A program made the translations under genes and the position numbers. The notes beneath the pieces are model-generated. The model saw nothing but the letters and a program-made list of their open reading frames with translations, was not told the origin of the DNA and did no database searches. Positions 3 through 19,961 of a stretch of DNA of 64,000 bases are shown here, one piece after another; position 1 is the first letter of the stretch; every line of letters starts with the position of its first letter. The stretch is from an uncultured Clostridia bacterium (GTDB lineage Bacteria > Bacillota > Clostridia > Christensenellales > CAMQZB01), in assembly GCA_947039455.1 (NCBI GenBank), contig CAMQZB010000002.1, forward strand, positions 97,393 through 161,392, written 5' to 3'.

Positions 3-212
3 TTGTTGCAATACACAACACTAAATGCAGTAGCTATAAGCGAAATGATAAGAAACTGCGGCTATAAAGAACTAACCAATTATATAAATCTAGCAAAGAT
101 AAACGCTAAAGAACAAAAGGCAAACGGCGATGTGAACATATTGAAAAAAGAGCTAACAATATTAGCTAATCACATGCAAAGAATAGAAAAGGAGGGTGCA
201 AATGAGCAGTAA
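3..212 (+). CDS. Hypothetical protein, 5'-truncated by the window edge
   Basis: The open frame enters from the window start and overlaps the next gene start by 17 nt (operon-like). No recognisable motif. Confidence 0.4.
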   Translation: MLQYTTLNAVAISEMIRNCGYKELTNYINLAKINAKEQKANGDVNILKKELTILANHMQRIEKEGANEQ

Positions 213-3200
213 TGTAAAAGAGAAAATAAGAGAAATATATACAACACTTGAAGAAGTAAATCGTAATATTTCAACTGACAAGGAGCGGTTTAAAGAGTTT
301 CTAATATCATCAAGCAAAAACTACAAATGCACCTATCAACAACAATTATTGATATACAACCAGTGTCCCGAATCAACAGCCGTCCATACATTTGATGGTT
401 GGAAGAATCATTTTAAGCGTTACGTAAAAAAAGGCGCAAAAGGAATTGCCGTCCCAAACATAGAGCGAGCATACGGAAAAAACGAGTACGCCTATTTATT
501 TGATATATCCGCAACTGATCCAAGACAAAATTCAATAAACGTACCAATATGGCAAAGAGAAGACAGTGACAACACAGCAATAATCCAAACCCTTGGAAAC
601 AAATACGGAATCGATGTAGACTCAGAAGAATTCAGTGATTATACCCTTGATGAAGTAATTGAATTCGCAGTAGATATTTCTTGCCAATACAATTTTGCGG
701 ATTATATCCTAGAAAACCAACAGCAAACGGAAACGGACACAAATAACCATGCTGAAGCAACTATCTACAAAGGCGTATTAGCGACAATTTACGGAAGATT
801 GGGACTAAGCACAAACCAAATAGAGTTTGACGAATTAGAAAACTTAACTGAATCTGAATACTTCAACGTAATGGGTGCAATAAACGAAATTTCAAAAGAA
901 CTCTTACTCAATATCAGCCAAACAATCCAAACAAATCAATCAATAGCTCCGCAAACAGCGGAAGTAGAAATAACGCCAATCGAACATGATGACGAAGTGT
1001 ATTTTGAACCATTAACCAATGACAACATAAAAGCATTGAATGAGCAAATCACTTTTGAAATGCCAGTTAAAATCAAAACCGTGGAAGTGGTTGAACCTAT
1101 AAAGAAAACCGAAGTAATAAACCCAGTAATCCCACAAGTAGATTTTTACGATAAACAGCTAAAAGACGATATCGACACAAGCCAATATTTAGGACGAATT
1201 CTTGAACTAAACGGAAGAAAGTTCATAGTAGAGAAAATGGATAAAACCAATTCGTCACTTCGAGATATCACTTTCCAAGCTAACGTAGGAATACCAATCT
1301 GGAGGGGCGAACCTAGTCACTATATTGTAGATTGCATTAACGAAATTGACCGCAAAAAAAATGATAAGAAATCAAAGGGCGAGAATTTCCGTATTGAAGA
1401 TAATGCCATTGGCGTTGGAACTCCACGTGAGCGATACAAAAACAATATTGATGCAATAAAAGTATTAAAAGCATGCCAAGAAGAAAACAGCATAGCGACA
1501 AAAGTTGATCAAGAAGTATTGTCTAAATACGTTGGTTGGGGCGGATTAGCGGAAGCCTTTGACGAAACAAAATGGGGTAAAGAGTATCTTGAACTGAAAA
1601 CCTTGCTAACGGAAGACGAATACACCGCAGCAAGAGAAAGCACCTTAACCGCATTTTACACTCAACCAGTAGTAGTTAATGCAATGTATGAAGCAATCTC
1701 AAATATGGGTTTTACAAAAGGTAACATACTAGAACCGTCTTGTGGAATAGGAAATTTCATAGGACGAAAACCAACCAATCTAAATGACAGCAAAGTGTAC
1801 GGAGTGGAACTTGACAGCATTTCAGGAAGAATTTCAAAACTGTTATATCCACAAGAAAACATACAAGTCAAAGGTTTTGAACAAACGAAATTTTCAGACA
1901 ATTTCTTTGATGTAGCAATCGGAAATGTACCATTTGGAGACTTCAAAGTTCCCGATTCAAAGTATAACAAACACAACTTTCAAATTCACGATTACTTCTT
2001 TGCAAAATCACTTGATAAAGTAAGAAGTGGCGGTGTGATTGCCTTCATAACTTCACAAGGCACAATGGATAAAATGACAGCTCGTTTCAGGAAATACCTA
2101 TGCGAGAAAGCTGAATTACTTGGAGCGATAAGACTTCCTGACGATACCTTTTCAAAAAGTGCAGGAACTAAAGTAACATCAGACATTATATTTCTACAAA
2201 AAAGAGATAGACAAAACCTAGTAGAAGAAAGTTGGGTAAATACCAGTAAGTACAAAGACGAATTGCAAATGAATAACTATTTCATTGAAAACCCTGAAAT
2301 GATTTTAGGTGAAATGAAAGTAGAAAGCGGACCATTCGGACCGCAACTAAATTGTAAAGCTATAGATGGTGCAACCCTAGAAGAGCAGCTACATCAAGCA
2401 ATCAAAAACATTCATGGAAAGATTGAATTTGTTGAGCAAGAAACCGACATTGAAGATATAGACACAAGAGAAACATTGCCTGCTGACGATGCAGTAAAGA
2501 ACTTCTCATTCACAACAGTAGACGATAAAATCTTCTACAGAGAAAACAGCGTAATGGTGGAACATAAAGCACCGTTAACAACTCAAAACCGTATAAAAGG
2601 AATGATTGATCTTAGAAACATGACAAGACAATTAATCGAATACCAGTTAAATGATTATAGTGACGACCTAATCAAAGAATCTCAAAAACAGCTTGATAAA
2701 AGTTACAACACATTTACAAAAAAATACGGTTACATAAATTTAAGTGCAAATTCCAACGCGTTCAATGACGATAGCAGTTATTGTTTGTTGTGTTCACTTG
2801 AAACCCCTGATAGAGAAGAAAAAGACAAATATAATAAAGCAACTATATTCACAAAACGAACAATCAAGCCAAAAGAAGTAGTAACAAAAGTCGACACGCC
2901 AATCGAAGCATTAGTGCTGTCAGTAGCTGAAAAAACCAAAGTAGACCTAGAGTATATGTCTCAGTTAACTGATAAAACTAGCGAAGAATTAATAACCGAA
3001 CTTAGAGGCGTAATATTCAAAGAACCACGTTATGACGACAATGAAATCTATCTAACTTCAGAAGAGTATTTAAGTGGAAACGTAAGAGAAAAACTCTCAC
3101 AAGCACAGTTCTTTGCTAAAGACAATAAGCAATTTGATATCAACGTACAAGCACTAGAAAACGTAATACCAAAGGACTTAACTGCAAGTGAAATTTCAAT

Positions 3201-4578
3201 CCGCGTAGGCGCAACATGGGTTCCAGTGAAGAACTATCAAGAGTTCATGGAAGAAACATTCAAGCCAAATAGCTATGCTAAAGATGTAATAAAAGTACAG
3301 TACAGCAAAAACACATCACAATGGAATATAACTAGAAAAACAGCAGATTTAGACAACATAACAGCCACGAGCAAATACGGAACCAAGCGAAGCAACGGTT
3401 ATAAATTATTTGAAGAAAGTCTGAATTTACGTGAAGCAAGAGTGTATATGACTAAGTACGATCATGACGGCAAAGAGGTACGAGTTGTAGATAAAGAAGA
3501 AACTTCCATAGCGGTAAGCAAACAAGCATTAATTGCTGAAACTTTCAAAGATTGGGTGTGGAAAGACCCCACAAGGCGTGAACAGTTGGTTCGACTCTAC
3601 AATGATAATTACAACAACATAAGACCGCGTGAGTACCACGGTGGCGATTTAGCCTTTGTAGGTATGAACAATGAAATAACTTTAAAACCACATCAAAAAG
3701 ACGCAGTAGCTCACATTTTATATGGTGGAAATACTTTGCTAGCTCACGTTGTCGGAAGTGGTAAAACTTTCGAAATGGTTGCTGCAGCACAAGAATCAAA
3801 ACGGTTAGGATTATGCAACAAATCATTGTTTGTAGTGCCAAATCATTTGACGGAACAGTGGGCAGGTGAATACATGCAACTGTATCCATCAGCAAATATA
3901 TTAGTTGCAACAAAGAAAGATTTTGAAACAAAAAACAGAAAGAAATTCGTAAGCAGAATAGCCACAGGCGATTACGATGCAGTGATTATTGGGCATACGC
4001 AATTTGAAAAAATACCTATGTCAATCGAAAGACAAGAAATAGAATTAAATCGCCAAAAGAATGAAGTCCTAACTGGTATTGCTGAATTGAAAAGTAATAA
4101 CGGCGAAAGATTTTCAATCAAAGCAATGGAACGAACAAGAAAAGGAATTGAAGCAAAACTAAAGAAACTGAATGATGCAAGCCGAAAGGACGATGTGATT
4201 ACCTTTGAAGAATTAGGAGTAGATAGACTTTTTGTAGACGAAGCACATTACTATAAAAACTGTGCGATATTCACAAAAATGCGAAACGTTGGCGGAATAG
4301 CACAAACGGAAGCCCAAAAGTCTAGCGACCTATTTATGAAGTGTCGATACCTTGACGAAGTCACTGGAGGTCGCGGAATTATTTTCGCAACAGGAACTCC
4401 AATTTCCAACTCAATGGTAGAAATGTACACAATGCAAAGATACTTGCAATACGGAAAACTACAAGAAAAAGGATTAAACCACTTCGACAACTGGGCAAGT
4501 ACATTTGGAGAAACTCAAACCACAATAGAACTAGCGCCGGAAGGTGTAGAGTATGAAGGAGGATTGTTACTTTTATGA
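196..4578 (+). pseudogene. 5' part (codons 1-1449) of an interrupted ~2085-codon polyvalent protein: ArdC-N-like domain, N6-adenine DNA methyltransferase and SNF2/DEAD helicase N-lobe. After ...LAPEG it reads 11 foreign codons and stops at TGA.
   Basis: Motifs seen: YQQQLLIYNQ..WKNHFKRYVKKGAKGI (ArdC-N-like); EPSCGIGNF and GNVPFGD (MTase motifs I and IV); LLAHVVGSGKTF and LFVDEAHYYKN (helicase motifs I and II). The helicase C-lobe is absent here and is found at 18045-19961. Confidence 0.85.
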
Positions 4579-4778
4579 GTGATAATAACAACAATAATAA
4601 TGAAATGATAGCACAAAACGCGAGTGTGAACAAGGCAAAGACCTACAAAATAGGTAATACTTGGTATACAGTAACGGTGCATTTTAGCAAGACGAGCAAA
4701 GAGGTTTTAGAAGATAAAATCAAAAGGCTTATCAAAAATGATGATGAACTCATTGATAATGACCCTCAAAATAAATAG
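4575..4778 (+). CDS. TnpW-like small transposon protein
   Basis: The 67-aa sequence contains YTVTVHFSKTSKEVLEDKIKRLIKND, which matches the TnpW-family signature as I recall it (V.VHFS.TSKE...DKI.RLI.N). RBS AAGGAGG at 4556-4562. It lies directly upstream of the serine recombinase. Confidence 0.6.
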   Translation: MSDNNNNNNEMIAQNASVNKAKTYKIGNTWYTVTVHFSKTSKEVLEDKIKRLIKNDDELIDNDPQNK

Positions 4779-6743
<1,965 letters not shown>

Positions 6744-6753
6744 AGGAGGGAGT

Positions 6754-7434
6754 TTGGAAAACAAAGAATTTGAAATGTTTGTAATAATGCCAAAGCGTGT
6801 GCTTTATGACGAGAAAATTTCGCCGAGTGCTAAACTTCTTTATGCGGAAATTGAGTGTCTGACACACAATGTTGGATATGCGTATGCTAGTAATGATTAT
6901 TTTGCAAAGCTATTTCATTCAACGGAGCGTAGCATAATTAGATGGATAGCGGAACTGGAATCAAGAGAATACATAACTATAAAGTACAAACATGAGGTAA
7001 ATAGAAACAGTAGAAAAATATTCGCTAATATAGAGATTTCCGAAAGTGAAAATCAAAATAAAAGCGACTTTGGGGTGACAAAAATGTCACACGCGTATGA
7101 CGAAAATGTCACTCGGTCGTGTGACAAAAATGTCATACATAATAATATTAGTAATAATAATATAAATAAATATACTAAAGTAAGTAAGAAAGGAAATAAG
7201 AACGCGCGTGCGAGAGTTCTTGGGTACCAAGAAATTATGGAAGAATTTCAAGTATCTGAATTAGTGCAAACTGTTCTTTGGAGTTATATCCAATCTTGTC
7301 AGCTAAATGGATTTAAACATACTAATGAAGCATTCATGCAATTGCTTATCGATTTAGAAAATAAGTACAAATCTGATGATGATAAAATGCAAGCAATCTT
7401 AAATGCGGTTAAGTATGGTAAAAGAGTTATATAG
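6754..7434 (+). CDS. Helix-turn-helix (DnaD/replication-organiser-like) protein; start uncertain (TTG 6754 or ATG 6775)
   Basis: The segment ISPSAKLLYAEIECL...YASNDYFAKLFHSTERSIIRWIAELESREYITI resembles the winged-HTH N-terminus of DnaD-like and phage replication proteins. Confidence 0.45.
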   Translation: MENKEFEMFVIMPKRVLYDEKISPSAKLLYAEIECLTHNVGYAYASNDYFAKLFHSTERSIIRWIAELESREYITIKYKHEVNRNSRKIFANIEISESENQNKSDFGVTKMSHAYDENVTRSCDKNVIHNNISNNNINKYTKVSKKGNKNARARVLGYQEIMEEFQVSELVQTVLWSYIQSCQLNGFKHTNEAFMQLLIDLENKYKSDDDKMQAILNAVKYGKRVI

Positions 7435-7656
7435 AATAAATCACATTTCCTAATTCGGCTAAAATTAGCCTTGTAATCGAAGTGAAAGAAAATATTCATT
7501 AGATTACGAGAACAAGAAACGCCGACGAAATCGACCACGTTTTAAGGCTGATATGATATGTTTGTTTGAATTGTACAAGCTGTTACTAATAGTGATAACA
7601 AATGAAAATATAAAGCGTATTCCTTGTGTATTAAAATATCTATAATAGGAAGTTTT

Positions 7657-7713
7657 GTTACTTTTGACAAAAGTAACGCAAAAGCACTTTTGACACTTAC
7701 GTATCAAAAATGC
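7657..7713 (+). promoter_or_regulatory. Candidate oriT (RSA-like) for the MobV relaxase
   Basis: Two adjacent inverted repeats lie 50-110 bp upstream of the mob gene. One is GTTACTTTTG-A-CAAAAGTAAC (7657-7677, perfect 10-bp arms). The other is GCACTTTTGA-N10-TCAAAAATGC (7684-7713, 1 mismatch). Confidence 0.35.
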
Positions 7714-7765
7714 ACGCGCTTTGTCCTAAAGTACAAAGGGCAAAACGGACTAACGAAAAAGTGAG

Positions 7766-8959
7766 GTGATTAATATTAAAAGAACAATATCGATTATGGT
7801 GGGCAAAGGCTCACAGCAACATAATGCCAGAGCATTCAACGCCAAGAACGTTGACAGTGAAAGAACAAGCGAGAACGTTTGTTATTGCAATGAAAATTTA
7901 AAGGAAGTATATCATGAACTTTTCGAAGATGCTGTTGTTAGGTTCAATGAGAAACAAACTCGCAACGATAGGAAGATCGATAACTATTATGAAAAAATTC
8001 GAACAAGTAAACAAGAGAAACTATTTCATGAAGTAGTAGTGCAAATTGGAAACAAAGATGATATGGGTTCTAGAACATGGAACGGAAGTATAGCTGAAAT
8101 TGTCTTGAATGATTATATGAAAGAATTCGAAGAACGCAATTCGCAAATGAAAGTGTTTTCATCGCATTTGCATATGGACGAAGCTACGCCACATTTACAT
8201 ATTGATTTCGTTCCATACGTTTCAAATAGCTCAAGAGGAATGGACACGAGAGTTTCGCTAAAACAAGCTTTAGCAACTCAAGGTTTTAAAGGTGGAAGTC
8301 GAAATGAAAATGAATGGTCACAATGGGTATCTAGTGAGAAAAAACATCTTGAAAATCATATGAGGGAACATAACATTGAGTGGGAGCAAAAAGGCACTCA
8401 TGAAAAGCACTTAAATGTACTAGATTTTAAAAAACAAAAACGACTACTCGAACTTAACAGTCTTGATGAAGACATTGGCAAAAGAGTATTGGTGATTGAA
8501 GATTTAGTAGGTAAAGAAACAAGAGCAGAAAATAGAGTGAAGAATTATAAAGTAGTGGAAGAGTACATAAATAAATTACCAGACATTACAACTTCAGAAT
8601 GGCTACTGCCTGATCCTACGTTTGCAATGTCTGCAACAACTTATCATAAAAAGCATGCTAAACCACTTTTCAAAAAGTTAAAGAATTACATAGCTGATGT
8701 GATAGCAACGTTCTTAGGATTATCAAATCAATACAACAAACTTAAACGCGAAATGTATCAAGTAAATAAGTTGTTGAATCTAACGAAAAAAAAGTACAAT
8801 GAAAAAGAAGTTGAACTTAAAAAACATAAACAAAAAAGTGCGATTTACAATCGCGTAGAGAAGATATTAGGTAAAGAGAAAATACTAGACTTAATTCAAA
8901 AAGACAACTTAAAACAAACGCAACAAAAATCCAATGATAAAGGTGGCTTTTCACTATAA
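7766..8959 (+). CDS. MobV-family (Mob/Pre) relaxase; start uncertain (GTG 7766 or ATG 7796)
   Basis: HLHMDEATPHLHIDFVPY matches the H.DE..PH.H signature of Mob_Pre plasmid recombination/mobilisation enzymes. The C-terminus is coiled-coil and Lys-rich. Confidence 0.85.
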   Translation: MINIKRTISIMVGKGSQQHNARAFNAKNVDSERTSENVCYCNENLKEVYHELFEDAVVRFNEKQTRNDRKIDNYYEKIRTSKQEKLFHEVVVQIGNKDDMGSRTWNGSIAEIVLNDYMKEFEERNSQMKVFSSHLHMDEATPHLHIDFVPYVSNSSRGMDTRVSLKQALATQGFKGGSRNENEWSQWVSSEKKHLENHMREHNIEWEQKGTHEKHLNVLDFKKQKRLLELNSLDEDIGKRVLVIEDLVGKETRAENRVKNYKVVEEYINKLPDITTSEWLLPDPTFAMSATTYHKKHAKPLFKKLKNYIADVIATFLGLSNQYNKLKREMYQVNKLLNLTKKKYNEKEVELKKHKQKSAIYNRVEKILGKEKILDLIQKDNLKQTQQKSNDKGGFSL

Positions 8960-9014
8960 AAAAAGACACAAGAGCTGTTACGCTTCTTGTGCCTTTATAT
9001 TTAAAGTTGTTATG

Positions 9015-9260
9015 TTAATCAAGGTTTAAGTTGTCCGCTGAGAACTCATCACCGCTGATAAATTCGCTAGGGGATATTCTTAAACCATAGGATAATAGAA
9101 TCACGGTTTTCAAAGACATTCCTTTAGTGCGTTTTTGCATTATGCTTTTAACAGTTGAATAGGGTAATCCGCTTAATTCGGCTAACTTGTATTGCGTTAA
9201 ATTTTGCTTTCCCATGTATTCAGATAATTTTTCTCTAACTAAGTCATTAATAGTTTTCAT
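9015..9260 (-). CDS. XRE-family helix-turn-helix regulator
   Basis: 81 aa with LTQYKLAELSGLPYSTVKSIMQ, a typical Cro/CI HTH. Divergent from the 9346-9374 promoter. Confidence 0.8.
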   Translation of the reverse strand: MKTINDLVREKLSEYMGKQNLTQYKLAELSGLPYSTVKSIMQKRTKGMSLKTVILLSYGLRISPSEFISGDEFSADNLNLD

Positions 9261-9345
9261 TTGCGTTCCTCCAAGTAGGACTATATGTAATCTTAGTTTA
9301 TCCCAAAACTAAATAAAATATAGGACTATTAATTATCCTATTTAC

Positions 9346-9374
9346 TTGACCGCTATATGAAATTACTATATAAT
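9346..9374 (+). promoter_or_regulatory. Sigma-70-type promoter TTGACC-17 nt-TATAAT, with an ATAGGA-N10-TCCTAT inverted repeat just upstream (9320-9341)
   Basis: Hexamers and spacer read directly from the sequence. It lies in the divergent XRE / DUF1273 intergenic region. Confidence 0.5.
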
Positions 9375-9441
9375 TAGGATTAGGTGTAGTCTTAAAAGGA
9401 TTGTATTATTATACTACAACTTGAATTTTGGAGGAAGAAGA

Positions 9442-9960
9442 ATGTTTGATAAACAAGTAGAGAGTGTAAGCACTATAGGCGAAACGTGTTGTTTTACTGG
9501 TAATAGACCGCAAAAACTTGCATGGGGATACGATGAAAGCGATGTAAGGTGTGTGGAACTAAAGTTAAGAATAACCGCTGAGATTGAAAAAGCAATTGAT
9601 AAAGGGTATAACCACTTTATCTCTGGAATGGCACAAGGCTTCGATACCTACTGTGCCGAAATCGTTTTAGAGTTAATGAAAACTAACAAGAATATAACGC
9701 TAGAAGTAGCAATACCATGCGAAGGGCAATCTTCTAAATGGTACGAAGAAGATAAGGCGCGTTATTTTTTAATTATATCAAAAGCCACAAAAGAAACAAT
9801 GGTAACTAACCAATATACTAAATACAGCATGCAACTACGCAACAAATACATGGTTGCCAATTCGTCACTAGTAATAGCCTACAACACCTCCCCAATTGGT
9901 GGTACAGCATCCACAATAACCTACGCCCAAAAATTAAATAGAATTGTAGTGGTGTTGTGA
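9442..9960 (+). CDS. DUF1273 / SLOG-family (YoqJ-like) protein
   Basis: CCFTGNRPQKL...ISGMAQGFDTYCAEIVLEL matches the DUF1273 pattern as I recall it. RBS GGAGGAAG sits before the ATG at 9442. Confidence 0.55.
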   Translation: MFDKQVESVSTIGETCCFTGNRPQKLAWGYDESDVRCVELKLRITAEIEKAIDKGYNHFISGMAQGFDTYCAEIVLELMKTNKNITLEVAIPCEGQSSKWYEEDKARYFLIISKATKETMVTNQYTKYSMQLRNKYMVANSSLVIAYNTSPIGGTASTITYAQKLNRIVVVL

Positions 9961-10110
9961 TTAAATAAACTAAGACTTTATATTTCTACCGTAATATAAT
10001 AAAGGTACAAGAATTAAAAAATTCTTGCACCTTTCGTTCTACGAACGTTAGTTATAATATAATTTGCACTTGTATCGAAAACAAAATTGTGATATAATAA
10101 GTGCAAGAAT

Positions 10111-10229
10111 AAAAAAAAACTTTGCATTGCAAAGTTAAATTTTTCACCACACTGGTGAACCGACAAGTCGGCGATTTGAATGAATTCTTATTTGAACTCG
10201 TTGTGTAATCCTAAATGGTAGTCTAGGAC
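10111..10229 (-). ncRNA. tracrRNA: tracrRNA (~120 nt; 5' end estimated from the promoter)
   Basis: The minus strand reads GACTACCATTTAGGATTACACAAC, a perfect 24-nt complement of repeat positions 9-32. This is followed by GAGTTCAAATAAG (bulge plus lower stem, as in SpCas9 tracrRNA). Then come hairpins GCCGA-CTTG-TCGGT and CACCA-GTG-TGGTG, and the terminator ACTTTGC-AAT-GCAAAGT followed by T9. Confidence 0.85.
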
Positions 10230-10235
10230 ACAACT

Positions 10236-10264
10236 ATTATAACACACTTTTATTAAGGAGTCAA
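10236..10264 (-). promoter_or_regulatory. tracrRNA promoter TTGACT-17 nt-TATAAT (minus strand)
   Basis: -35 box at 10264-10259 and -10 box at 10241-10236. The -35 box overlaps the cas9 RBS (AAGGAG, 10255-10260). Confidence 0.6.
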
Positions 10265-10270
10265 TAGAAA

Positions 10271-13200
10271 ATGGATAAAATATTTTTTGGTTTAGATATT
10301 GGAACTGCGTCTGTAGGATTTGCAGTAACGGATGAAAACTATAAATTAAAGAAGTTAAAAGGCAAAGATGCGTGGGGCGTAAGATTGTTTGACCCAGCAA
10401 ATACCGCAGTTGAGCGAAGAGTGTTTAGAACTACAAGACGTCGTAGTATGCGAAGAAAGAATCGAATTGCATTATTGCAAGAAATATTTGCGGAAGAAAT
10501 TTCAAAAGTGGATCAAGGATTTTTCCAACGCATGAATGATAGTTTTTACGTTCAAAATGATAAGGCAGTAAATCAACCGTATTCACTTTTTTCGGGCAAA
10601 GAGTTTAATGATAAACACTATAATAGGCAATTCCCGACAATATATCATCTTCGAAAAGCATTGATTGAACAAGGTTCTTCAGATGCTCGTTTATTGTATC
10701 TTGCAATACATCATATAATTAAATACAGAGGTCATTTTTTATTTGAAGGACAAGACTTTTCAAGTGCACTTAAGATTGATTCTCTAATATTAGGATTAAA
10801 CGAAGAATTACAATTCTTTGAATTAAGCGGATTTGGCATGTCTGAATTGGATTCGTTGTCAAATATTGTTTTAGATAGTAAACTAAAATTAACAGCAAAA
10901 AAGAAACAGTTTGAGAAAATTCTTAATCCAACAACAAAGCAAGAAATTGAAATGATTTCGGTAATGGTTGGTGGAAGTTCTACATTAAATAAGATATTTG
11001 CTACGCAAGATTTTTCCGAGAGCGAAGTGAAGTCTATTAAATTTAGCGACAATGGTTTTGAAGACAATACTATGCCAAAACTTACGACGATTTTGGACGA
11101 ACAACACTTGGCAGTAATTGAAAAGCTAAAGGCAATTTATGATTGGACAGTACTATTTTCAATATTGCAAGGAAATCAATACATTTCGATTTCAATGTGT
11201 GGAAGATATGAAAAGCATAAAAAAGACTTAGCTATATTAAAGAAGTTTGTTAAAGAAAATTGCAAATCAAAATATGGAGAAATTTTTAGAAAAGATAAGT
11301 TATATTCTGCATATGTCGCTAGTGTAAAGGTAGGCTGTGAGAAAGTATCAATTAAAAAAATATCAGTAAAAGAAGATTTTTATAAAGAATTAAAAAAAGT
11401 ACTTGCTCAAGAGTCTGGAAGTATAATTGATAAAACAACTTATGAATACATATTGTCCGAAATGGAAAACGGAACTTTTTTACCTAAACAAGTAGTGAAA
11501 GATAACAGCGTAATTCCATATCAAGTGAATAAAATGGAACTTGATCAAATACTTGAAAATGCAAGCAAACATCTTGCTTTTTTAAATGAAAAGCATGATG
11601 GTATAACAGTTAAAGAAAAAATATCACTACTCTTGACATTTAAGATTCCATACTATGTTGGACCGCTTAATAATCACCACAAAGAAAAATTTGCGTGGGT
11701 GGAAAGGCTTAGCACAGGAAGAGTAACGCCATGGAATTTTGATGATAAAATCGATAAAGATAAGAGTGCTGAAAAATTCATAACTAGAATGACGAATAAG
11801 TGTAGCTATTTAATTGGTGAAGATGTACTTCCTAAAACTTCGATAATATATCAAAAATTTACGGTATTGAATGAAATTAATAATATTAAAATTAATGGTG
11901 AGGCTATTACTGTTGAATTAAAGCAAGATATATTTAATGAGTTGTATTTGCTAAATAAGAAAGTGACTGTTAAAAAAGTCAAATTATTTTTAATAGAAAA
12001 AGGGTTGTTTAATAAAAATGATAAAATTGAAATAACTGGTGTGGATGTTGAGGGAGAACTTAAGTCATCAATGAGTTCATATGTAACATTTACAGATATA
12101 TTCAAAGAATTAACTACTGAAAATATAATAATCGCAGAAAACATAATTAAATGGAGTACATTGTTTGAAGATAAGAAAGTGCTTAAAAGACGAATTCAAT
12201 TAGAGTATGGCGATATATTAAAGTCAGAAACGTTAAATAAAGTAGTAGGAATGAATTTTAAAGGTTGGGGTAGATTATCTGATAAATTGCTAAACGATGT
12301 TATGAATATTAATAAAGAAACAGGTGAAGTGTATTCATTAATTGAAAACATGTGGTCTAGTAACGATAACCTTATGGAATTGTTATCAAACCATTATAGC
12401 TACAGTGATGAAATCATGAAAATTAATTCTGATAAAATGAACGATTCCCAAAAAGTGAGTTATAAAGATATAGAAATTCTACCATGCTCACCATCGGTAA
12501 AAAGACAAATATGGCAATCATTTGAAGTAGTAAATGAGCTTGTAAAAGTAGCAAAAAAACAACCTGATAAAATCTTCATTGAAATGGCTAGAGGTGGTGG
12601 CGAGAAAAACAAGCGTACACTCTCAAGGAAAAAAAACCTAATTGAATTATACAGCAACATAAAAGAGGAAAGTGCTAGTTGGATTAAAGAGCTAGAGAGC
12701 TTAGACGATCAAAGATTGCAAAGCGATAAACTGTATTTGTACTATACTCAAATGGGAAAATGTATGTATTCAAATGAAAAAATAGATTTAGGCGATTTGT
12801 TAACGAACAATATGGCATATGACATTGACCATATCTATCCACAGAGTAAAATTAAAGACGATAGTTTGGATAATAGAGTATTAGTAAAGAAAGTTTTGAA
12901 CGGTGAAAAACTGAATGTTTATCCAATTTCATTTGCATGGCAACAAAAATGCAAAGGATTGTGGAATGCACTACTAAAGTATGCATTAATTAGCAAGAAA
13001 AAATATGAACGACTAGTTAGAACAACTGAATTTAGTGCTGATGAATTGGCTGACTTTATTGATAGACAGCTTGTTGAAACGCGCCAAACAACAAAATATG
13101 TTGCAAGCATACTAAAAACTATTATGCCAAAAACAGAGATTGTATATGTTAAAGCAGGTAATGTATCGAACTTTAGACATGATATGAATTTGTTGAAAGT

Positions 13201-14305
13201 AAGAGATATTAACGATTTACACCATGCGAACGATGCTTATTTAAATATAGTAGTTGGTAATGTTTATAATACTAAATTCGGTGCTAATGCTCGTATATTC
13301 ATGAAAAACAAACCAGAAGCATATAACATGCGAAGAATGTTTGATTATGATGTTAAGAGAGGTGAATACTATGCTTGGAAGCAACTAGGCGAAGATAAAA
13401 CTATTAATAAAGTGGTGCAAACGCTTACTAAGAATTCTCCCCTTGTTAGCAGATATACATATGAAGGTAAAGGTGGATTTTTCGACCAAAACATTGTAAA
13501 GAAGAAAGCAGGACTATTCCCAATTAAAGCAAGCGACGAAAGATTGCTAAAAACTGAAATTTATGGTGGATATAATAAGTTAGCTACAGGTTATTTCATT
13601 ATTATTGAGCATACAAAAAAATCAAAAACAATTCGCACTATTGAGAAAGTGCCTGTATTATATATAAATAAACTTGGTAACGATACTAATGCTCTAGAAA
13701 AATATTGTGAAAGTATTGGATATGAAAAGCCGAGGATTATTTGCAAAAAAATCAAAATCAAAACATTGTTTAAGATTAATGGAGTTAAATTAAGAATAGC
13801 AAATACAACTGGAACGCAAATAGGATTCCATTTAGCTGAAGAAGCTTATTGGAGTGACAAACAATCACTATATATAAAAAAATTAATTAGGGTAGCTGAA
13901 AAAATTTCTGAGAAGAAAATCAAGAAAGAAAATTATCAAATTACAAAATATGATAGTATTACTGTTCATGAAAATTTAAATACATTTGAAAATTTAATTT
14001 ATAAATTACAAAATAAGCCTTATAAAGAAACAACAATTTTTCAAAGTGTAGCATTAAAATTGCAAAATAAAAAAGAATTTTTCAGTGATATAGTTATAAA
14101 TCAACAAGTGGTAGTCCTATTAGAAATATTAAAACTATTTAAGAACGACGCAACAAAATCTGATTTATCATTGCTTCAAGAAGGCAGTGCAGTTGGTACA
14201 ATAGTATTAACTCAAAATTTGAATCCAAAAGATACAATCAAAATAATTTCACAATCTCCAACTGGATTATACGAAAAAGAGATTGACGTTTGGTCAATAA
14301 AATGA
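10271..14305 (+). CDS. cas9: Cas9, type II-A, 1344 aa
   Basis: RuvC-I FGLDIGTASVGFAV; arginine-rich bridge helix RRRSMRRKNRI; HNH YDIDHIYPQS..DDSLDNRVLV; RuvC-III HHANDAYLNIVVG. Followed by cas1, cas2 and csn2. Confidence 0.97.
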   Translation: MDKIFFGLDIGTASVGFAVTDENYKLKKLKGKDAWGVRLFDPANTAVERRVFRTTRRRSMRRKNRIALLQEIFAEEISKVDQGFFQRMNDSFYVQNDKAVNQPYSLFSGKEFNDKHYNRQFPTIYHLRKALIEQGSSDARLLYLAIHHIIKYRGHFLFEGQDFSSALKIDSLILGLNEELQFFELSGFGMSELDSLSNIVLDSKLKLTAKKKQFEKILNPTTKQEIEMISVMVGGSSTLNKIFATQDFSESEVKSIKFSDNGFEDNTMPKLTTILDEQHLAVIEKLKAIYDWTVLFSILQGNQYISISMCGRYEKHKKDLAILKKFVKENCKSKYGEIFRKDKLYSAYVASVKVGCEKVSIKKISVKEDFYKELKKVLAQESGSIIDKTTYEYILSEMENGTFLPKQVVKDNSVIPYQVNKMELDQILENASKHLAFLNEKHDGITVKEKISLLLTFKIPYYVGPLNNHHKEKFAWVERLSTGRVTPWNFDDKIDKDKSAEKFITRMTNKCSYLIGEDVLPKTSIIYQKFTVLNEINNIKINGEAITVELKQDIFNELYLLNKKVTVKKVKLFLIEKGLFNKNDKIEITGVDVEGELKSSMSSYVTFTDIFKELTTENIIIAENIIKWSTLFEDKKVLKRRIQLEYGDILKSETLNKVVGMNFKGWGRLSDKLLNDVMNINKETGEVYSLIENMWSSNDNLMELLSNHYSYSDEIMKINSDKMNDSQKVSYKDIEILPCSPSVKRQIWQSFEVVNELVKVAKKQPDKIFIEMARGGGEKNKRTLSRKKNLIELYSNIKEESASWIKELESLDDQRLQSDKLYLYYTQMGKCMYSNEKIDLGDLLTNNMAYDIDHIYPQSKIKDDSLDNRVLVKKVLNGEKLNVYPISFAWQQKCKGLWNALLKYALISKKKYERLVRTTEFSADELADFIDRQLVETRQTTKYVASILKTIMPKTEIVYVKAGNVSNFRHDMNLLKVRDINDLHHANDAYLNIVVGNVYNTKFGANARIFMKNKPEAYNMRRMFDYDVKRGEYYAWKQLGEDKTINKVVQTLTKNSPLVSRYTYEGKGGFFDQNIVKKKAGLFPIKASDERLLKTEIYGGYNKLATGYFIIIEHTKKSKTIRTIEKVPVLYINKLGNDTNALEKYCESIGYEKPRIICKKIKIKTLFKINGVKLRIANTTGTQIGFHLAEEAYWSDKQSLYIKKLIRVAEKISEKKIKKENYQITKYDSITVHENLNTFENLIYKLQNKPYKETTIFQSVALKLQNKKEFFSDIVINQQVVVLLEILKLFKNDATKSDLSLLQEGSAVGTIVLTQNLNPKDTIKIISQSPTGLYEKEIDVWSIK

Positions 14306-15171
14306 GCTTTAGAACTATAGTTATCTCATCTCGTGCAAAATTAGAAACAAGAATGAATTACTTAATAGTGCGTGGTGAAAATGATAGCAAAATTCATTTA
14401 AGCGAAATAAATACAATTATAGTCGACTCCACAGCAGTAGCAATAACGGCAGGACTGTTGTGTGAGTTGTCTAATCGTAAAATAAAGCTAATTTTCTGTG
14501 ATGAAAAACATAATCCACATTGTGAAATGGTGCCATATTATGGATCCCATGATACAAGTGAAAAAATCAAAAATCAAACCAACTGGAGCTTAATGGTAAA
14601 GTCGCTTGTATGGACAAATGTAATACGATTGAAGATAAAAAAGCAATCTGAACATTTGCGTAGTTTAGGTTTAGTTGAACATGAGACCTTGGAAAAATAC
14701 CAAAACGAAATTGTGTTAAATGATTTAACAAATAGAGAAGGGCATTCTGCTAAACTATATTTTATAAGTATATTTGGAAAAGATTTTACGAGATCGAACT
14801 CGTCTTCAATTAATATGATGCTTAATTATGGTTATGCTATAATACTGTCGGCGTTTAATAGAGAAATAGTTTCTAGCGGCTATATAACGCAAATAGGATT
14901 AAAACATTGCAATGAATACAATCATTTCAATTTAGCAAGTGATTTAATGGAACCCTTTAGAATAGTTATAGATCGAGCTGTTGTTGACATGATTGATGAA
15001 CCTTTTGAAAAAGAACAGCGGAATAAATTAGTTGACCAATTAAATAAAGAAGTTATCATTTTCGGAAAGAAACAATTTCTTTCTAACGCAATAAAAATAT
15101 ACTGTAAAAGCGTATTCAATGCATTAAATGAAGAAAATGAGTTGCTAATAAAAGAATATTATGAGTTATAG
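14302..15171 (+). CDS. cas1: Cas1
   Basis: ATGA overlap with the cas9 stop. Its size and position between cas9 and cas2 are typical of type II. The track ORF starts 12 nt earlier. Confidence 0.93.
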   Translation: MSFRTIVISSRAKLETRMNYLIVRGENDSKIHLSEINTIIVDSTAVAITAGLLCELSNRKIKLIFCDEKHNPHCEMVPYYGSHDTSEKIKNQTNWSLMVKSLVWTNVIRLKIKKQSEHLRSLGLVEHETLEKYQNEIVLNDLTNREGHSAKLYFISIFGKDFTRSNSSSINMMLNYGYAIILSAFNREIVSSGYITQIGLKHCNEYNHFNLASDLMEPFRIVIDRAVVDMIDEPFEKEQRNKLVDQLNKEVIIFGKKQFLSNAIKIYCKSVFNALNEENELLIKEYYEL

Positions 15172-15481
15172 ATTTATGAGAGTTTTAGTTTTTTATGATA
15201 TGCCTAATCAAACAGATTTAGAAAAGAGAGAATATCGCTACTTTAGAACATATCTAATAAAAAGTGGCTTTATAATGTTGCAAGAATCTGTCTATGGCAA
15301 ATTGGCTTTGAATGGAAGTGTAGTTGAGTCAATTAGACTTAATTTAAGAAAAAATAAACCCAAATGCGGATTAGTGCAAATTTTGGCACTAACTGAAAAA
15401 CAGTTTTCAGATATGGAATTTCTTGTTGGATCGAGTACAAACGATGTACTTGATACTATTGATAGGTTGGTTGTGCTATGA
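15161..15481 (+). CDS. cas2: Cas2
   Basis: 106 aa with N-terminal MRVLVFYDMP, a Cas2-like beta strand. Overlaps cas1 and csn2. Confidence 0.9.
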   Translation: MSYRFMRVLVFYDMPNQTDLEKREYRYFRTYLIKSGFIMLQESVYGKLALNGSVVESIRLNLRKNKPKCGLVQILALTEKQFSDMEFLVGSSTNDVLDTIDRLVVL

Positions 15482-16152
15482 CTATAAACTTACCAAGTCT
15501 TGAAGAATGTATTTATGTGTACGAAAATAAAACAACAGTATTAGTGGTTGAAGATCCCCAAAGTTATTATAAGGTAATTAACGAATGGAAAGACAACATA
15601 GAAGGATTAGACGATTCAATTGCGGTCTTTGAAAATCACAAAGAAATGGTGGTGAAGAAACAAGTAGAATTATTGACTGATTTATTTAATTTTACAATAA
15701 ATAATAGGAAAAACATCACGATGCTACATAGCAAAATTAAACAAATTGCTTATAGAGAGGATTTTTATTTAAAATCTCAATCACTATTATCGGTGCAACA
15801 AAAATATCTAACTGATATTATATTTGAATTACAAAGTGATGTGAAGTTTGATGAAGAAATTGATATTAGCGGAATTTTCAAAGTTTTTGATGTAAAATAT
15901 GAAGAGAAAAGTAATTCTTTGTTGGAAAAGCTAGTGAATTATATCAAAGTAATTTCGGAATTCTCGTCAATTAAGTTATTGGTAACTGTAAATTTAAAAG
16001 CAGTGTTGTCCGAATTAGAAGTGCGACAATTGTATAAAGAAGCAAATTATATGAAAATGAATCTATTGCTAATTGAAAATAACTATCAACAGAATTTAGA
16101 TGGTGAAAACGTCTATATACTTGACAAAGATAGGTGTTTAGTGTATAAATAG
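15478..16152 (+). CDS. csn2: Csn2 (type II-A signature adaptation protein)
   Basis: 224-aa ORF overlapping the cas2 stop, located immediately before the CRISPR leader. Confidence 0.85.
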   Translation: MTINLPSLEECIYVYENKTTVLVVEDPQSYYKVINEWKDNIEGLDDSIAVFENHKEMVVKKQVELLTDLFNFTINNRKNITMLHSKIKQIAYREDFYLKSQSLLSVQQKYLTDIIFELQSDVKFDEEIDISGIFKVFDVKYEEKSNSLLEKLVNYIKVISEFSSIKLLVTVNLKAVLSELEVRQLYKEANYMKMNLLLIENNYQQNLDGENVYILDKDRCLVYK

Positions 16153-16220
16153 AGTAGGATTGTATTATATATTGTTTAGGATTAATGCGTATGTTGTGCG
16201 TAAAGACTCTCAAATGTGAG
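16153..16220 (+). promoter_or_regulatory. CRISPR leader
   Basis: 68-bp AT-rich segment between csn2 and the first repeat. It ends ...CAAATGTGAG, similar to the ATTTGAG-type leader-anchoring end of other II-A arrays. Confidence 0.6.
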
Positions 16221-17906
16221 GTTTGAGAGTTGTGTAATCCTAAATGGTAGTCAAACAAATATGAGAGTACGCAACGTAATGTGCTAGTTTGAGAGTTGTG
16301 TAATCCTAAATGGTAGTCAAACGACTGAATCAGATATAACCCATACATGGGGGTTTGAGAGTTGTGTAATCCTAAATGGTAGTCAAACGATTGAACTAGC
16401 ATACAAGCAAACGGAGCCGTTTGAGAGTTGTGTAATCCTAAATGGTAGTCAAACCATACTCAATGTTTGAGTATTGGCAATCATGTTTGAGAGTTGTGTA
16501 ATCCTAAATGGTAGTCAAACCCAAATAAAAAATACAGCAATTGAAATTACGTTTGAGAGTTGTGTAATCCTAAATGGTAGTCAAACTTAAATTTTCAACA
16601 TTTAGCGTGTATCTATGTTTGAGAGTTGTGTAATCCTAAATGGTAGTCAAACTAAAATATAGCGTGTTATTGTGTTAGTACTGTTTGAGAGTTGTGTAAT
16701 CCTAAATGGTAGTCAAACAGCGAATCCAGCCATGTATGAAAATAGGCCGTTTGAGAGTTGTGTAATCCTAAATGGTAGTCAAACTGGTGTAAATTTCTTG
16801 AAAGTAAAGGCTATGTTTGAGAGTTGTGTAATCCTAAATGGTAGTCAAACTTTAGGATACAAAACAAGCCGACCACCTTTGTTTGAGAGTTGTGTAATCC
16901 TAAATGGTAGTCAAACCAACAACACTAATTTTATCACCCTTGTCAAGTTTGAGAGTTGTGTAATCCTAAATGGTAGTCAAACTAAATCACTTCCAAGGTC
17001 GAGAAACTTATTGTTTGAGAGTTGTGTAATCCTAAATGGTAGTCAAACGGTGATTATAGTATTCTCGTAAAGTTCTATGTTTGAGAGTTGTGTAATCCTA
17101 AATGGTAGTCAAACTTTAGTAGATTGCTCGTAATGCTCACAGTGGTTTGAGAGTTGTGTAATCCTAAATGGTAGTCAAACAGTTCAACTCTTTCAAATGG
17201 TATGCACTTAGTTTGAGAGTTGTGTAATCCTAAATGGTAGTCAAACGAAACCACTACCTACCGCACTGTTATAATTGTTTGAGAGTTGTGTAATCCTAAA
17301 TGATAGTCAAACAAGAAGAAGAAGACACAGCATACGGAAAGGGTTTGAGAGTTGTGTAATCCTAAATGGTAGTCAAACTCTATAATATATATCAACGGAA
17401 GGAAAGCAGTTTGAGAGTTGTGTAATCCTAAATGGTAGTCAAACCATTGCACTTGCTGTTTCATCTATGCTATGTTTGAGAGTTGTGTAATCCTAAATGG
17501 TAGTCAAACTGTAATGTTCTTTTGCAAGCCATCGCCAATGTTTGAGAGTTGTGTAATCCTAAATGGTAGTCAAACTTGCTTTCGGCACTACCTTGCTCAT
17601 GCATAAGTTTGAGAGTTGTGTAATCCTAAATGGTAGTCAAACTTGTAAGAAGTTTAAGAACTATATTTTATTGTTTGAGAGTTGTGTAATCCTAAATGGT
17701 AGTCAAACTCAAACATTGACAATACACTGAACACGTGAGTTTGAGAGTTGTGTAATCCTAAATGGTAGTCAAACGCCCTCCGTTAGTGTGCTATATAATA
17801 CATAGTTTGAGAGTTGTGTAATCCTAAATGGTAGTCAAACATACCAATAGTGCAGAACTGCAGAACCTACATTTGAGAGTTGTGTAATCCTAAATGGTAG
17901 TTTAGT
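16221..17906 (+). CRISPR. CRISPR array: 26 repeats of 36 bp (GTTTGAGAGTTGTGTAATCCTAAATGGTAGTCAAAC) and 25 spacers
   Basis: 66-bp periodicity checked at several points. Spacers are 30 nt, except spacer 19 (29 nt) and spacer 21 (31 nt). Repeat 17 has G->A at 17303. The terminal repeat (17871-17906) is degenerate (ATTTGAG...GTAGTTTAGT). Confidence 0.98.
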
Positions 17907-17963
17907 TATTGCAAAAATTTAATTTTATAGTTTAAAACATTTATAGTTAAATGTACTAAACGA

Positions 17964-17999
17964 AACACCTATTGATTTTTTATCGATAGGTGTTTTTTC
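17964..17999 (+). terminator. Rho-independent terminator downstream of the array
   Basis: AACACCTATTGAT-TTTTT-ATCGATAGGTGTT followed by TTTTT. Confidence 0.6.
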
Positions 18000-18044
18000 A
18001 TGCCCAAAATCAGAAAACATCACAAGTATCCTTGACAAACAGTT

Positions 18045-19961
18045 CCTGAAGGCACATCCTATCGCAGCAAAACCCGCTTCAATAAATTCTATAATTTACC
18101 TGAATTAATGAGCATATTTAAAGAGGTTGCGGACATCAAAACAGCGGACATGTTAGACTTGCCAGTGCCAAAAGCTAACTTTCATACCATTGCTGTAAAA
18201 CCTACTGAAGTACAACGAGAGTTCGTTATGAACTGTGCGGATAGAGCTGAAGCGGTGAGAGATAGGTCAGTAGATAGCACCGTTGACAACATGTTGAAAA
18301 TTACAAACGATGGACGGAAAATCGCATTAGACCCAAGATTAATAAATCCACTTCTTGAAGATGAAAAAGTAACGAAAGTTAATGCTTGTGTCAATAATGT
18401 ATTCAACATTTGGAAAGATGGAACTACTCCAGAAAATAATGAAGATCCAACCAATCAAACCCAATTAGTATTTTGCGATATGTCAACACCAAAAACTGAT
18501 GGCACGTTCAATGTCTATGATGATATTAGAGAAAAATTAGTTAAAAAAGGTATGCAAAAAGAGCAAATAGCTTTCATTCACGAAGCTAAAACCGATATTC
18601 AAAAAGACAAACTATTTGCAAAAATGAAACGTGGCGAAATTCGAGTATTACTTGGTTCAACGCAAAAAATGGGTGCAGGAACTAATGTTCAAGAGCGATT
18701 AAAAGCAATTCACCACCTAGACTGTCCATGGAGACCAAGTGATTTAGAGCAGCGGAATGGACGAGTAATAAGACAAGGCAATTTGAATAAAGAAGTTGAT
18801 GTATATAACTATGTAACCAGTGAAACATTTGATGCGTATTTATATCAACTAGTAGAAAATAAGCAAAAATTCATATCTCAAATCATGTCAAGCAAAGCGA
18901 TAGTGAGAAGTGCGGAAGATATAGACGAGACAGCGTTATCATATGCTGAAATCAAAATGTTGGCAACAGGAAATCCCTACATAAAAGAAAAAATGGATCT
19001 AGATATTCAAGTTGCAAGATTGAAATTACTAAAGAGCAATTACCAAAACGAGATTTATCAACTACAAGATTTTATCTATAAAGATTACCCAACTCAATTA
19101 GCTGATGTGTTATCCAAAATAGACACAACTGAAAAAGATGTAGCAATTCAAATGACACACCCAGAGAAAATAAGTGACAAGAATTTCACTAATATGAATG
19201 TAATGGGTAAAGTGCATTACGACAAAGAAATGGCAGGTCGAGCCTTGCTTGAGAGTATGAAAGGCGTTGGGATTGATGAAAAAGAAGTAGGTGAGTATCG
19301 TGGGTTTAAGCTAATAGCGAATTACTCAATTTTCGAAAGCAAAACGAAACTAACAATCAAAAACAACGGACGGCGTACTATCGATATGGGCATTGACGTG
19401 TTCGGTAATATCCAAAGAATTGATAATGCAATTAATAACATTCCACTAAGATTAAATACATATAAAGAAGTCCTTACAGAGCTTGAAAACCAACTAGAGG
19501 TAGCAAAAGTAGAAGTTGAAAAAACATTCGATAAAGATGATGAATTAAATACAAAACTAGCAAGATTGAAAGAGCTTGACTCTCTATTAAATTTAGATAA
19601 AAGCACAGCGAAACAAGAAACTGAAGATCAACAAAACGCAAATGAAAGCAACGGAATAATCGAAACAACGCTATTTAGTTCGCATTGTGTATTTGACAAC
19701 GAAGCGCGAAACGCTAAGCTAATGCAAATGCCAAGTGATAGTGAATATGGCGACTATTGTTATTATCTTGAAAATTCTCTGATAGTAAGTGAAATTGATG
19801 GAGAAATCAATATAAAAGCAGATATAAGTAGTTCGATAAAGATATTCAACGATAAAACAGTTAAGAATATATCAATAATTGATTTTGTAAGACAGCAAGA
19901 AAATCGAATAAACCAAAGTGCGGAAAAAATCCGTAGTAATGAATTAGAAATAGCAATTTAA
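18045..19961 (+). pseudogene. 3' part of the interrupted polyvalent protein (helicase C-lobe and C-terminal tail)
   Basis: The frame reads PEGTSYRSKTRFNKFYNLPELMSIFKEVADIK..., then VFCDMSTPK, LLGSTQKMGAGTNVQ and HLDCPWRPSDLEQRNGRVIRQGN (helicase motifs IV-VI). It is in frame with 196-4544 once 4545-18052 is removed. Confidence 0.85.

Follow-up and report, generated by a model that had tools for sequence, protein, structure and literature searches.

Results

A Tn4451-type mobilisable element within an SNF2 gene

The window, by which we mean the entire stretch of 64,000 nucleotides analysed here, contains an integrative mobilisable element (IME) that lies inside a gene for an SNF2/WH_1/DUF8437 helicase-methylase. 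The element encodes, in this order, a TnpW-like protein, a large serine recombinase, an HTH_36 protein, a Mob_Pre relaxase, an HTH protein, a YpsA/SLOG protein and the products of a cas9-cas1-cas2-csn2 cluster, followed by a CRISPR array. The main features are as follows.

196-4544, plus strand: 5' part of the host gene, whose 3' part occupies 18053-19961
about 4545-18052, plus strand: integrative mobilisable element, 13,508 bp
4575-4778, plus strand: tnpW-like gene, 67 aa (Pfam PF14202, 3.3e-13, 49.6 bits against a cut-off of 25)
4821-6743, plus strand: gene for a TnpX-type large serine recombinase, 640 aa, with its own ribosome-binding site (GGGAG, 4809-4813)
7766-8959: open reading frame for the Mob_Pre relaxase (PF01076, 3.9e-15)
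10271-17906: complete type II-A CRISPR-Cas cargo (Cas9 of 1344 aa, Cas1, Cas2, Csn2)
17962-17996, plus strand: intrinsic terminator, with a U-run after the hairpin (folding energy -18.9 kcal/mol, z = -6.5, no shuffled sequence as stable)

The boundaries of the element are well defined. Joining 196-4544 to 18053-19961 creates one open frame of 2086 aa, in which ...ELAPEG is followed across the junction by TSYRSKTRF..., and homologous host genes align with this region without gaps, providing independent support for the boundaries. A direct repeat, GAAGG, is present at both junctions (4540-4544 and 18048-18052, plus strand), with different bases flanking its two copies and the left copy contained in the host codons for APEG. 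Since the SNF2 gene is located directly downstream of the gene for a T4SS coupling protein, the host of the insertion is a conjugative element. The IME interrupts a conserved gene of the ICE at a fixed site and is flanked by a short direct repeat, as expected for an IME nested in an ICE.

An earlier analysis based on the nucleotide sequence and its open reading frames (hereafter, the sequence-only reading) had placed the element in the Tn4451 family and had called a tnpW-like frame with a recombinase gene about 40 bp downstream of it. The family assignment is borne out by the combination of TnpW, a large serine recombinase with DUF4368 and a Mob_Pre relaxase, and the gene calls by the match of the 67-aa product to Pfam TnpW and by the recombinase start codon (ATG, 4821), located 42 nt past the tnpW stop. 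The recombinase contains Resolvase, Recombinase, Zn_ribbon_recom, DUF4368 and DUF7662 domains, with Pfam matches at 1e-10 to 7e-24 for the resolvase, recombinase, zinc ribbon and DUF4368 domains, as well as a visible catalytic motif (YCRLSRDD), and shares only about 37-47% identity with plasmid-encoded TnpX/TndX-like proteins. The sequence from the tnpW stop to the recombinase ribosome-binding site contains a short inverted repeat, GGCAGA-N12-TCTGCC (4782-4806), which is not followed by a U-run.

The CRISPR array comprises 26 repeats and 25 spacers of 29-31 nt, which had no match in phage or plasmid collections or in the window itself. The terminator at 17962-17996 follows its last, degenerate repeat, and a comparison of positions 4000-18600 with Rfam gave no match. 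A search of the literature returned no description of a serine-recombinase IME that carries Cas9 and is itself nested in an ICE.

Two element ends that would form a promoter when joined

[quoted passage not shown] The left end starts with TG (4545-4546) and continues with the -10 hexamer TAGAGT (4547-4552, plus strand), which begins 2 nt past the left junction and occupies positions +7 to +12 from the crossover centre, followed by a ribosome-binding site, AAGGAGG (4556-4562), and the tnpW start codon (ATG, 4575). Direct reading of the sequence reproduced all positions that had been reported for the two hexamers, the ribosome-binding site and the start codon. The deduced circle joint reads TTGACA-AACAGTTCCTGAAGGTG-TAGAGT, and its 17-nt spacer, as originally proposed, is unambiguous, because any crossover within the GAAGG repeat would yield the same joint and the bases flanking the repeat differ. 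The predicted joint sequence is ...CCTTGACAAACAGTTCCTGAAGGTGTAGAGTATGAAGG..., and excision would restore the target sequence ...GCGCCGGAAGGCACATCC.... The crossover dinucleotide is probably GA (18048-18049 in the right copy), which is the dinucleotide common to the relatives L089, L214, L220 and L222 described below, with AA, AG and GG also fitting inside the GAAGG of the window. By reading of the sequence, a crossover at GA makes CCTT (-19 to -16) and AAGG (+16 to +19) symmetric.

TAGAGT matches the -10 consensus at 4/6 positions and has no extended TG. The promoter predicted at the joint scores 10/12, compared with 6 for attL, 9 for attR and 5 for attB. At attL, TAGAGT is preceded at a distance of 17 nt by AATAGA, with 2/6 of the -35 consensus, and the best-scoring pairing, ATAGAA-16-TAGAGT, reaches 6/12. 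As the left end is separated from the tnpW start codon by only 30 nt, no element-borne promoter fits before tnpW in the integrated state, and a consensus scan of the plus strand from 4545 to 4821 listed no promoter-like site. A recombinase promoter that would form only at the circle joint is thus supported at the level of sequence.

To put this score into context, 200,000 random joints were built from the window as a chance model. A junction-spanning promoter with a score of at least 10/12 arose in 0.7% of them, and a perfect -35 hexamer combined with a -10 hexamer having A2 and T6 in 0.24%. A consensus scan of the region identified 74 promoter-like sites, against 70.7 expected in shuffled sequence. 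Such sites are no commoner than in shuffled sequence, and a single match therefore means little alone.

Relatives of the element and their targets

Other copies of the exact element, sought with the TnpW protein, were limited to the same insertion. The nearest recombinases, encoded on contigs L082-L092, L212 and L213, are 56-64% identical, and the closest relatives in a one-genome-per-species collection are at most 50% identical; aligning the sequences that precede tnpW in distant relatives was uninformative. On L082-L092, L212 and L213, the element occupies one and the same codon position in homologous SNF2 genes, and this shared position among all close relatives shows that the clade of the window element is site-specific. 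One of these contigs (L082, 8300-8530) stems from the metagenome sample of the window and contains a second element, 64% identical, which is inserted in a paralogous SNF2 gene at the same codon; the copy on another (L212, CP171108.1, 9408-13600) appears decayed and immobile.

Distant TnpW/recombinase elements split the T4SS gene TrbL_2 between ...NN(L/M)(H/A)D and (V/I)DT... (L214, 1580-10679; L220, 4295-14310; L216, 1-346). The recombinases of L214 and L220, which split this gene in conjugative elements, are 51-54% identical to that of the window. Both loci carry two different TnpX-like recombinase genes, suggesting that several elements are stacked in one conjugative element. L222 (NZ_CP070578.1, 6917-13615), whose recombinase is 43% identical, splits a topoisomerase-III-like (topB-like) gene on a Klebsiella IncC plasmid, and removal of the element restores the topoisomerase-III-like reading frame. 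Its genes are arranged in the order recombinase ... MobA ... TnpW, which is the order of Tn4451. Family elements with aminoglycoside-resistance genes (L222; L225, NZ_CP017026.1, 623-11741; L221, NZ_MG288680.1) sit in Klebsiella IncC/IncHI2 and Campylobacter coli plasmids. A further group (L001-L007, L056 and L057), with recombinases 50% identical, was delimited by comparing several insertions.

Overall, the targets are SNF2, TrbL_2, the topB-like gene and one other gene. The comparison set for the element ends comprises six delimited relatives (five further lineages, with recombinases 43-58% identical and three other target genes). The lineages compared are few and partly related. Joining the flanks and testing for an open frame, tried as a generic means of delimitation, gave hundreds of candidates per locus and was abandoned. 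A scan with a degenerate right-end pattern produced mostly chance matches, including ordinary promoters such as that of an ArsR/metal-ATPase operon (L165), and the eight true right ends it retrieved were excluded as evidence because the pattern itself contained TTGACA.

Conservation of the joint geometry

In the six delimited relatives, the joint has the form TTGACA-16/17-TAnnnT, and in one more it reads TTGACT-18/19-TATGCT. The right ends of the window element, L086, L089, L214, L220 and L222 all read CCTTGACA at positions -19 to -12, and the block CCTTGACAA (18030-18038 in the window, -19 to -11 from the crossover), which contains TTGACA, is invariant in six delimited elements. The left ends uniformly show TAnnnT at +7 to +12, in the form of TAGAGT in the window, TAGATT in L082, TAAACT in L083, TAAGCT in L086, L089 and L212, TATGTT in L214, TATTAT in L220 and TACACT in L222. 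The promoter scores (out of 12) of the joints and the integrated contexts are as follows.

L086: joint 9; attL 4, attR 0, attB 0
L089: joint 9; attL 5, attR 0, attB 0
L214: joint 10; attL 6, attR 4, attB 4
L220: joint 11; attL 8, attR 8, attB 5
L222: joint 10; attL 6, attR 4, attB 5
L001 and L056: joint 9 (TTGACA-16-TGaTAGTGT); integrated contexts at most 6

In every case, attL, attR and attB remain below the joint, usually by a wide margin. The crossover of the L001 group appears to be AA. The distance between promoter and gene is not conserved, as tnpW of the Paenibacillus relatives begins about 290 nt past the joint. The split promoter proposed in the sequence-only reading holds at the sequence level, with the same geometry recurring in every relative for which both ends are defined, and this comparison provides stronger evidence than the random-joint model. 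We found no published description of a family-wide conservation of this joint signature, although the literature was not searched systematically.

Circular forms

A circular record of 8.5 kb from Subdoligranulum variabile (OY725856.1, L223), which is without a typed replicon, is 94% identical from end to end to the element integrated in the Campylobacter coli plasmid (L225, 623-11741), and its joint corresponds exactly to the right end of the integrated element followed by its left end. The order at this joint is tnpW, CCTTGACT, 18 or 19 nt, TATGCT and recombinase, with the length of the spacer depending on that of a single G-run. Rather than a true plasmid, this 'plasmid' resembles a mobilisable element in its excised, circular state.

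The joint of the window element was absent from the contigs of the metagenome runs that hold the window (X1-X4, compared at the contig level). Raw-read runs with the same species label lacked the window element and gave low-complexity matches only, and joint-specific pattern scans of metagenome and genome collections returned 0 matches. Short, low-depth contigs from runs X1 and X2 that match 4528-4572 with 3 mismatches correspond to the left junction of L082.

Promoter elements or recombinase recognition elements

Large serine recombinases bind close to the crossover, and the two motifs are no more than about 19 bp away from it, so that part of their conservation could stem from recombination instead of transcription. 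The CCTTGACAA block and TAnnnT could, in principle, be only recognition elements of the serine recombinase in an attP-like joint, with an incidental likeness to a promoter and no transcription start. In line with this notion, a position-by-position comparison shows that the two arms form an imperfect inverted repeat, with 10/19 positions matching in the window, and C-19, A-14 and A-12 are common to both arms. However, these three bases are all that the mirrored left arm has in common with the invariant right arm CCTTGACAA. The left-arm invariants T+7, A+8 and T+12 correspond to T1, A2 and T6 of the -10 hexamer, so that the bases invariant in one arm only are the consensus-critical bases of a promoter. 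This arm-specific invariance also persists across recombinases that have changed their target (SNF2, TrbL_2, topB-like), whereas the inner 10 bp vary and, by reading, resemble the target of each clade (e.g. CTGCACCGGA compared with TTGCGCCGGA in the host). Moreover, inspection of the flanks of the window element and L086 revealed no TTGACA-like motif in the attB arms, and Tn4451 provides an experimental precedent for promoter function at such a joint. We therefore judge it unlikely that recognition alone accounts for the conserved motifs.

Still less probable, in our view, is that TTGACA at the right end serves as an outward promoter in the integrated state, re-expressing both the 3' portion of the split helicase gene and the conjugation genes that follow it. 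The attR of the window does read TTGACA-17-CATCCT (9/12, 18032-18066), facing the 3' part of the host gene, where an in-frame ATG at 18108 opens a 617-aa ORF (18108-19961). By contrast, the attR scores fall to 0 in L086 and L089 and to 4 in L214 and L222, and the score of 8 in L220 involves CACGTT as the -10 hexamer. The host-side hexamer of the relatives is thus not promoter-like, and the outward feature, unlike the joint promoter, is not conserved. Finally, a promoter-like sequence that arose by chance and lacks a function, as might be suggested by the background frequency of such sites in this AT-rich region and by the unrelated ordinary promoters (e.g. L165) that matched the right-end pattern, appears very improbable and, given the conservation, can be regarded as effectively refuted, because the probability of about 0.2-0.7% applies to a single joint, whereas the geometry recurs in every delimited relative.

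Discussion

Our analysis makes it likely that circularisation of this Tn4451-like IME rebuilds a split promoter that drives its recombinase, with promoter activity being predicted from the conserved geometry of the joint. We propose that the serine recombinase excises 4545-18052, probably via a GA crossover, and thereby joins the right and left ends of the element. The resulting arrangement, TTGACA-17 nt-TAGAGT, would act as a sigma-A-type promoter pointing into tnpW and the recombinase gene and, in the non-replicating circle, supply the recombinase required for re-integration. Integration would then part the two halves again and switch the promoter off. In the circle, the terminator at 17962-17996 may shield the joint from transcription of the CRISPR array. 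Given that the predicted promoter lies within the likely binding site of the recombinase, self-repression is also possible.

The layout of the left end has potential consequences for the products made from the joint. Based on the usual distance between the -10 hexamer, which ends at 4552, and the transcription start, transcripts from the joint are predicted to start near 4559-4560, inside AAGGAGG. Such a transcript would begin with GAGG, all that remains of this site, 12 nt ahead of the tnpW start codon. It would probably translate tnpW poorly and may mainly serve the recombinase gene with its own ribosome-binding site (GGGAG). The same compressed arrangement of -10 hexamer and ribosome-binding site is found in L082 and L083. 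In the integrated state, the TGA stop codon of the truncated host frame overlaps the tnpW start codon (ATGA, 4575-4578), and transcription continuing out of the helicase gene could therefore provide for expression of both tnpW and the recombinase gene. The sequence-only reading had held that recombinase expression is boosted only after excision. Its central element, a complete promoter at the joint only, is retained, but the restriction to the excised state ignored read-through from the host gene.

It is tempting to speculate that the displaced att site, with the -10 hexamer only 3 nt from the tnpW ribosome-binding site, leads to different products in the integrated and the circular state, although we consider this rather improbable. 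According to this scheme, helicase read-through in the ICE, acting through the full ribosome-binding site and the ATGA overlap, would yield TnpW and recombinase, whereas a start inside the ribosome-binding site in the circle would yield mainly recombinase. If TnpW biased the direction of recombination, the element would possess a built-in switch, with excision when the ICE is active and subsequent integration from the circle.

The logic of a split promoter is already known from Tn4451/Tn4453 and, in mechanistic terms, not surprising. Our findings extend it beyond this pair of clostridial transposons to a broad range of TnpX/TnpW elements nested in conjugative elements, whose hosts are gut and soil Firmicutes and some of which have reached Gram-negative resistance plasmids. 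They also provide a signature for finding element ends, composed of CCTTGACAA, 9 nt, the crossover, 5 nt and TAnnnT. Moreover, they point to a mobile element with a complete Cas9 system, whose expression logic is amenable to ordinary reporter assays.

Promoters of a similar design are formed in the circles of the insertion sequences IS911, IS30, IS2 and IS21, in which a -35 hexamer near one end and a -10 hexamer near the other generate a strong transposase promoter at the junction only. As in the element described here, the -35 and -10 hexamers are split and complete only in a circle or a head-to-tail junction. However, these insertion sequences encode DDE transposases and carry the two halves in their terminal inverted repeats, whereas in our case the halves are located in the att arms of a serine recombinase.

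The closest parallel is provided by Tn4451/Tn4453, for which Lyras and Rood are said to have described a promoter for tnpX in the circular intermediate (2000, Mol Microbiol 38:588). The features in common comprise a TnpX-type recombinase with DUF4368, TnpW, a Mob/Pre-type relaxase, a short crossover (here consistent with GA) and a -35 hexamer at the right end combined with a -10 hexamer at the left end, forming a recombinase-facing promoter in the circle only. In Tn4451, tnpW is the last gene and tnpX the first gene after the joint, so that the att site lies between tnpW and the recombinase gene. By contrast, the att site in the window is located upstream of tnpW, which places the -10 hexamer 3 nt from the tnpW ribosome-binding site. 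The proposal that the geometry is the same as in Tn4451 thus holds for the split halves, but the arrangement in the window is a permuted version with respect to the position of tnpW, and the element belongs to a site-specific clade. There are further differences: no TnpV, which like TnpY is part of the Tn4451 gene content, was detected among the ten window ORFs scanned by Pfam, and in place of catP the element carries a type II-A CRISPR-Cas system as cargo. In addition, Tn4451 has a low target specificity (PMC5704250), whereas the clade of the window element targets a single codon position in the SNF2 gene of an ICE.

With regard to the site of insertion, the element resembles the streptococcal serine-integrase IMEs whose targets are the snf2, traG or maff2 genes of Tn5252-superfamily ICEs (Coluzzi et al. 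2017, PMC5357655). The passages of that study considered here contain no description of a joint promoter, and the hosts in our study, Clostridia and Paenibacillus-type Firmicutes, are different from those of the streptococcal elements. Both cases share a mobilisable element with a serine integrase that disrupts the SNF2 gene of an ICE at a fixed position, giving rise to nested elements.
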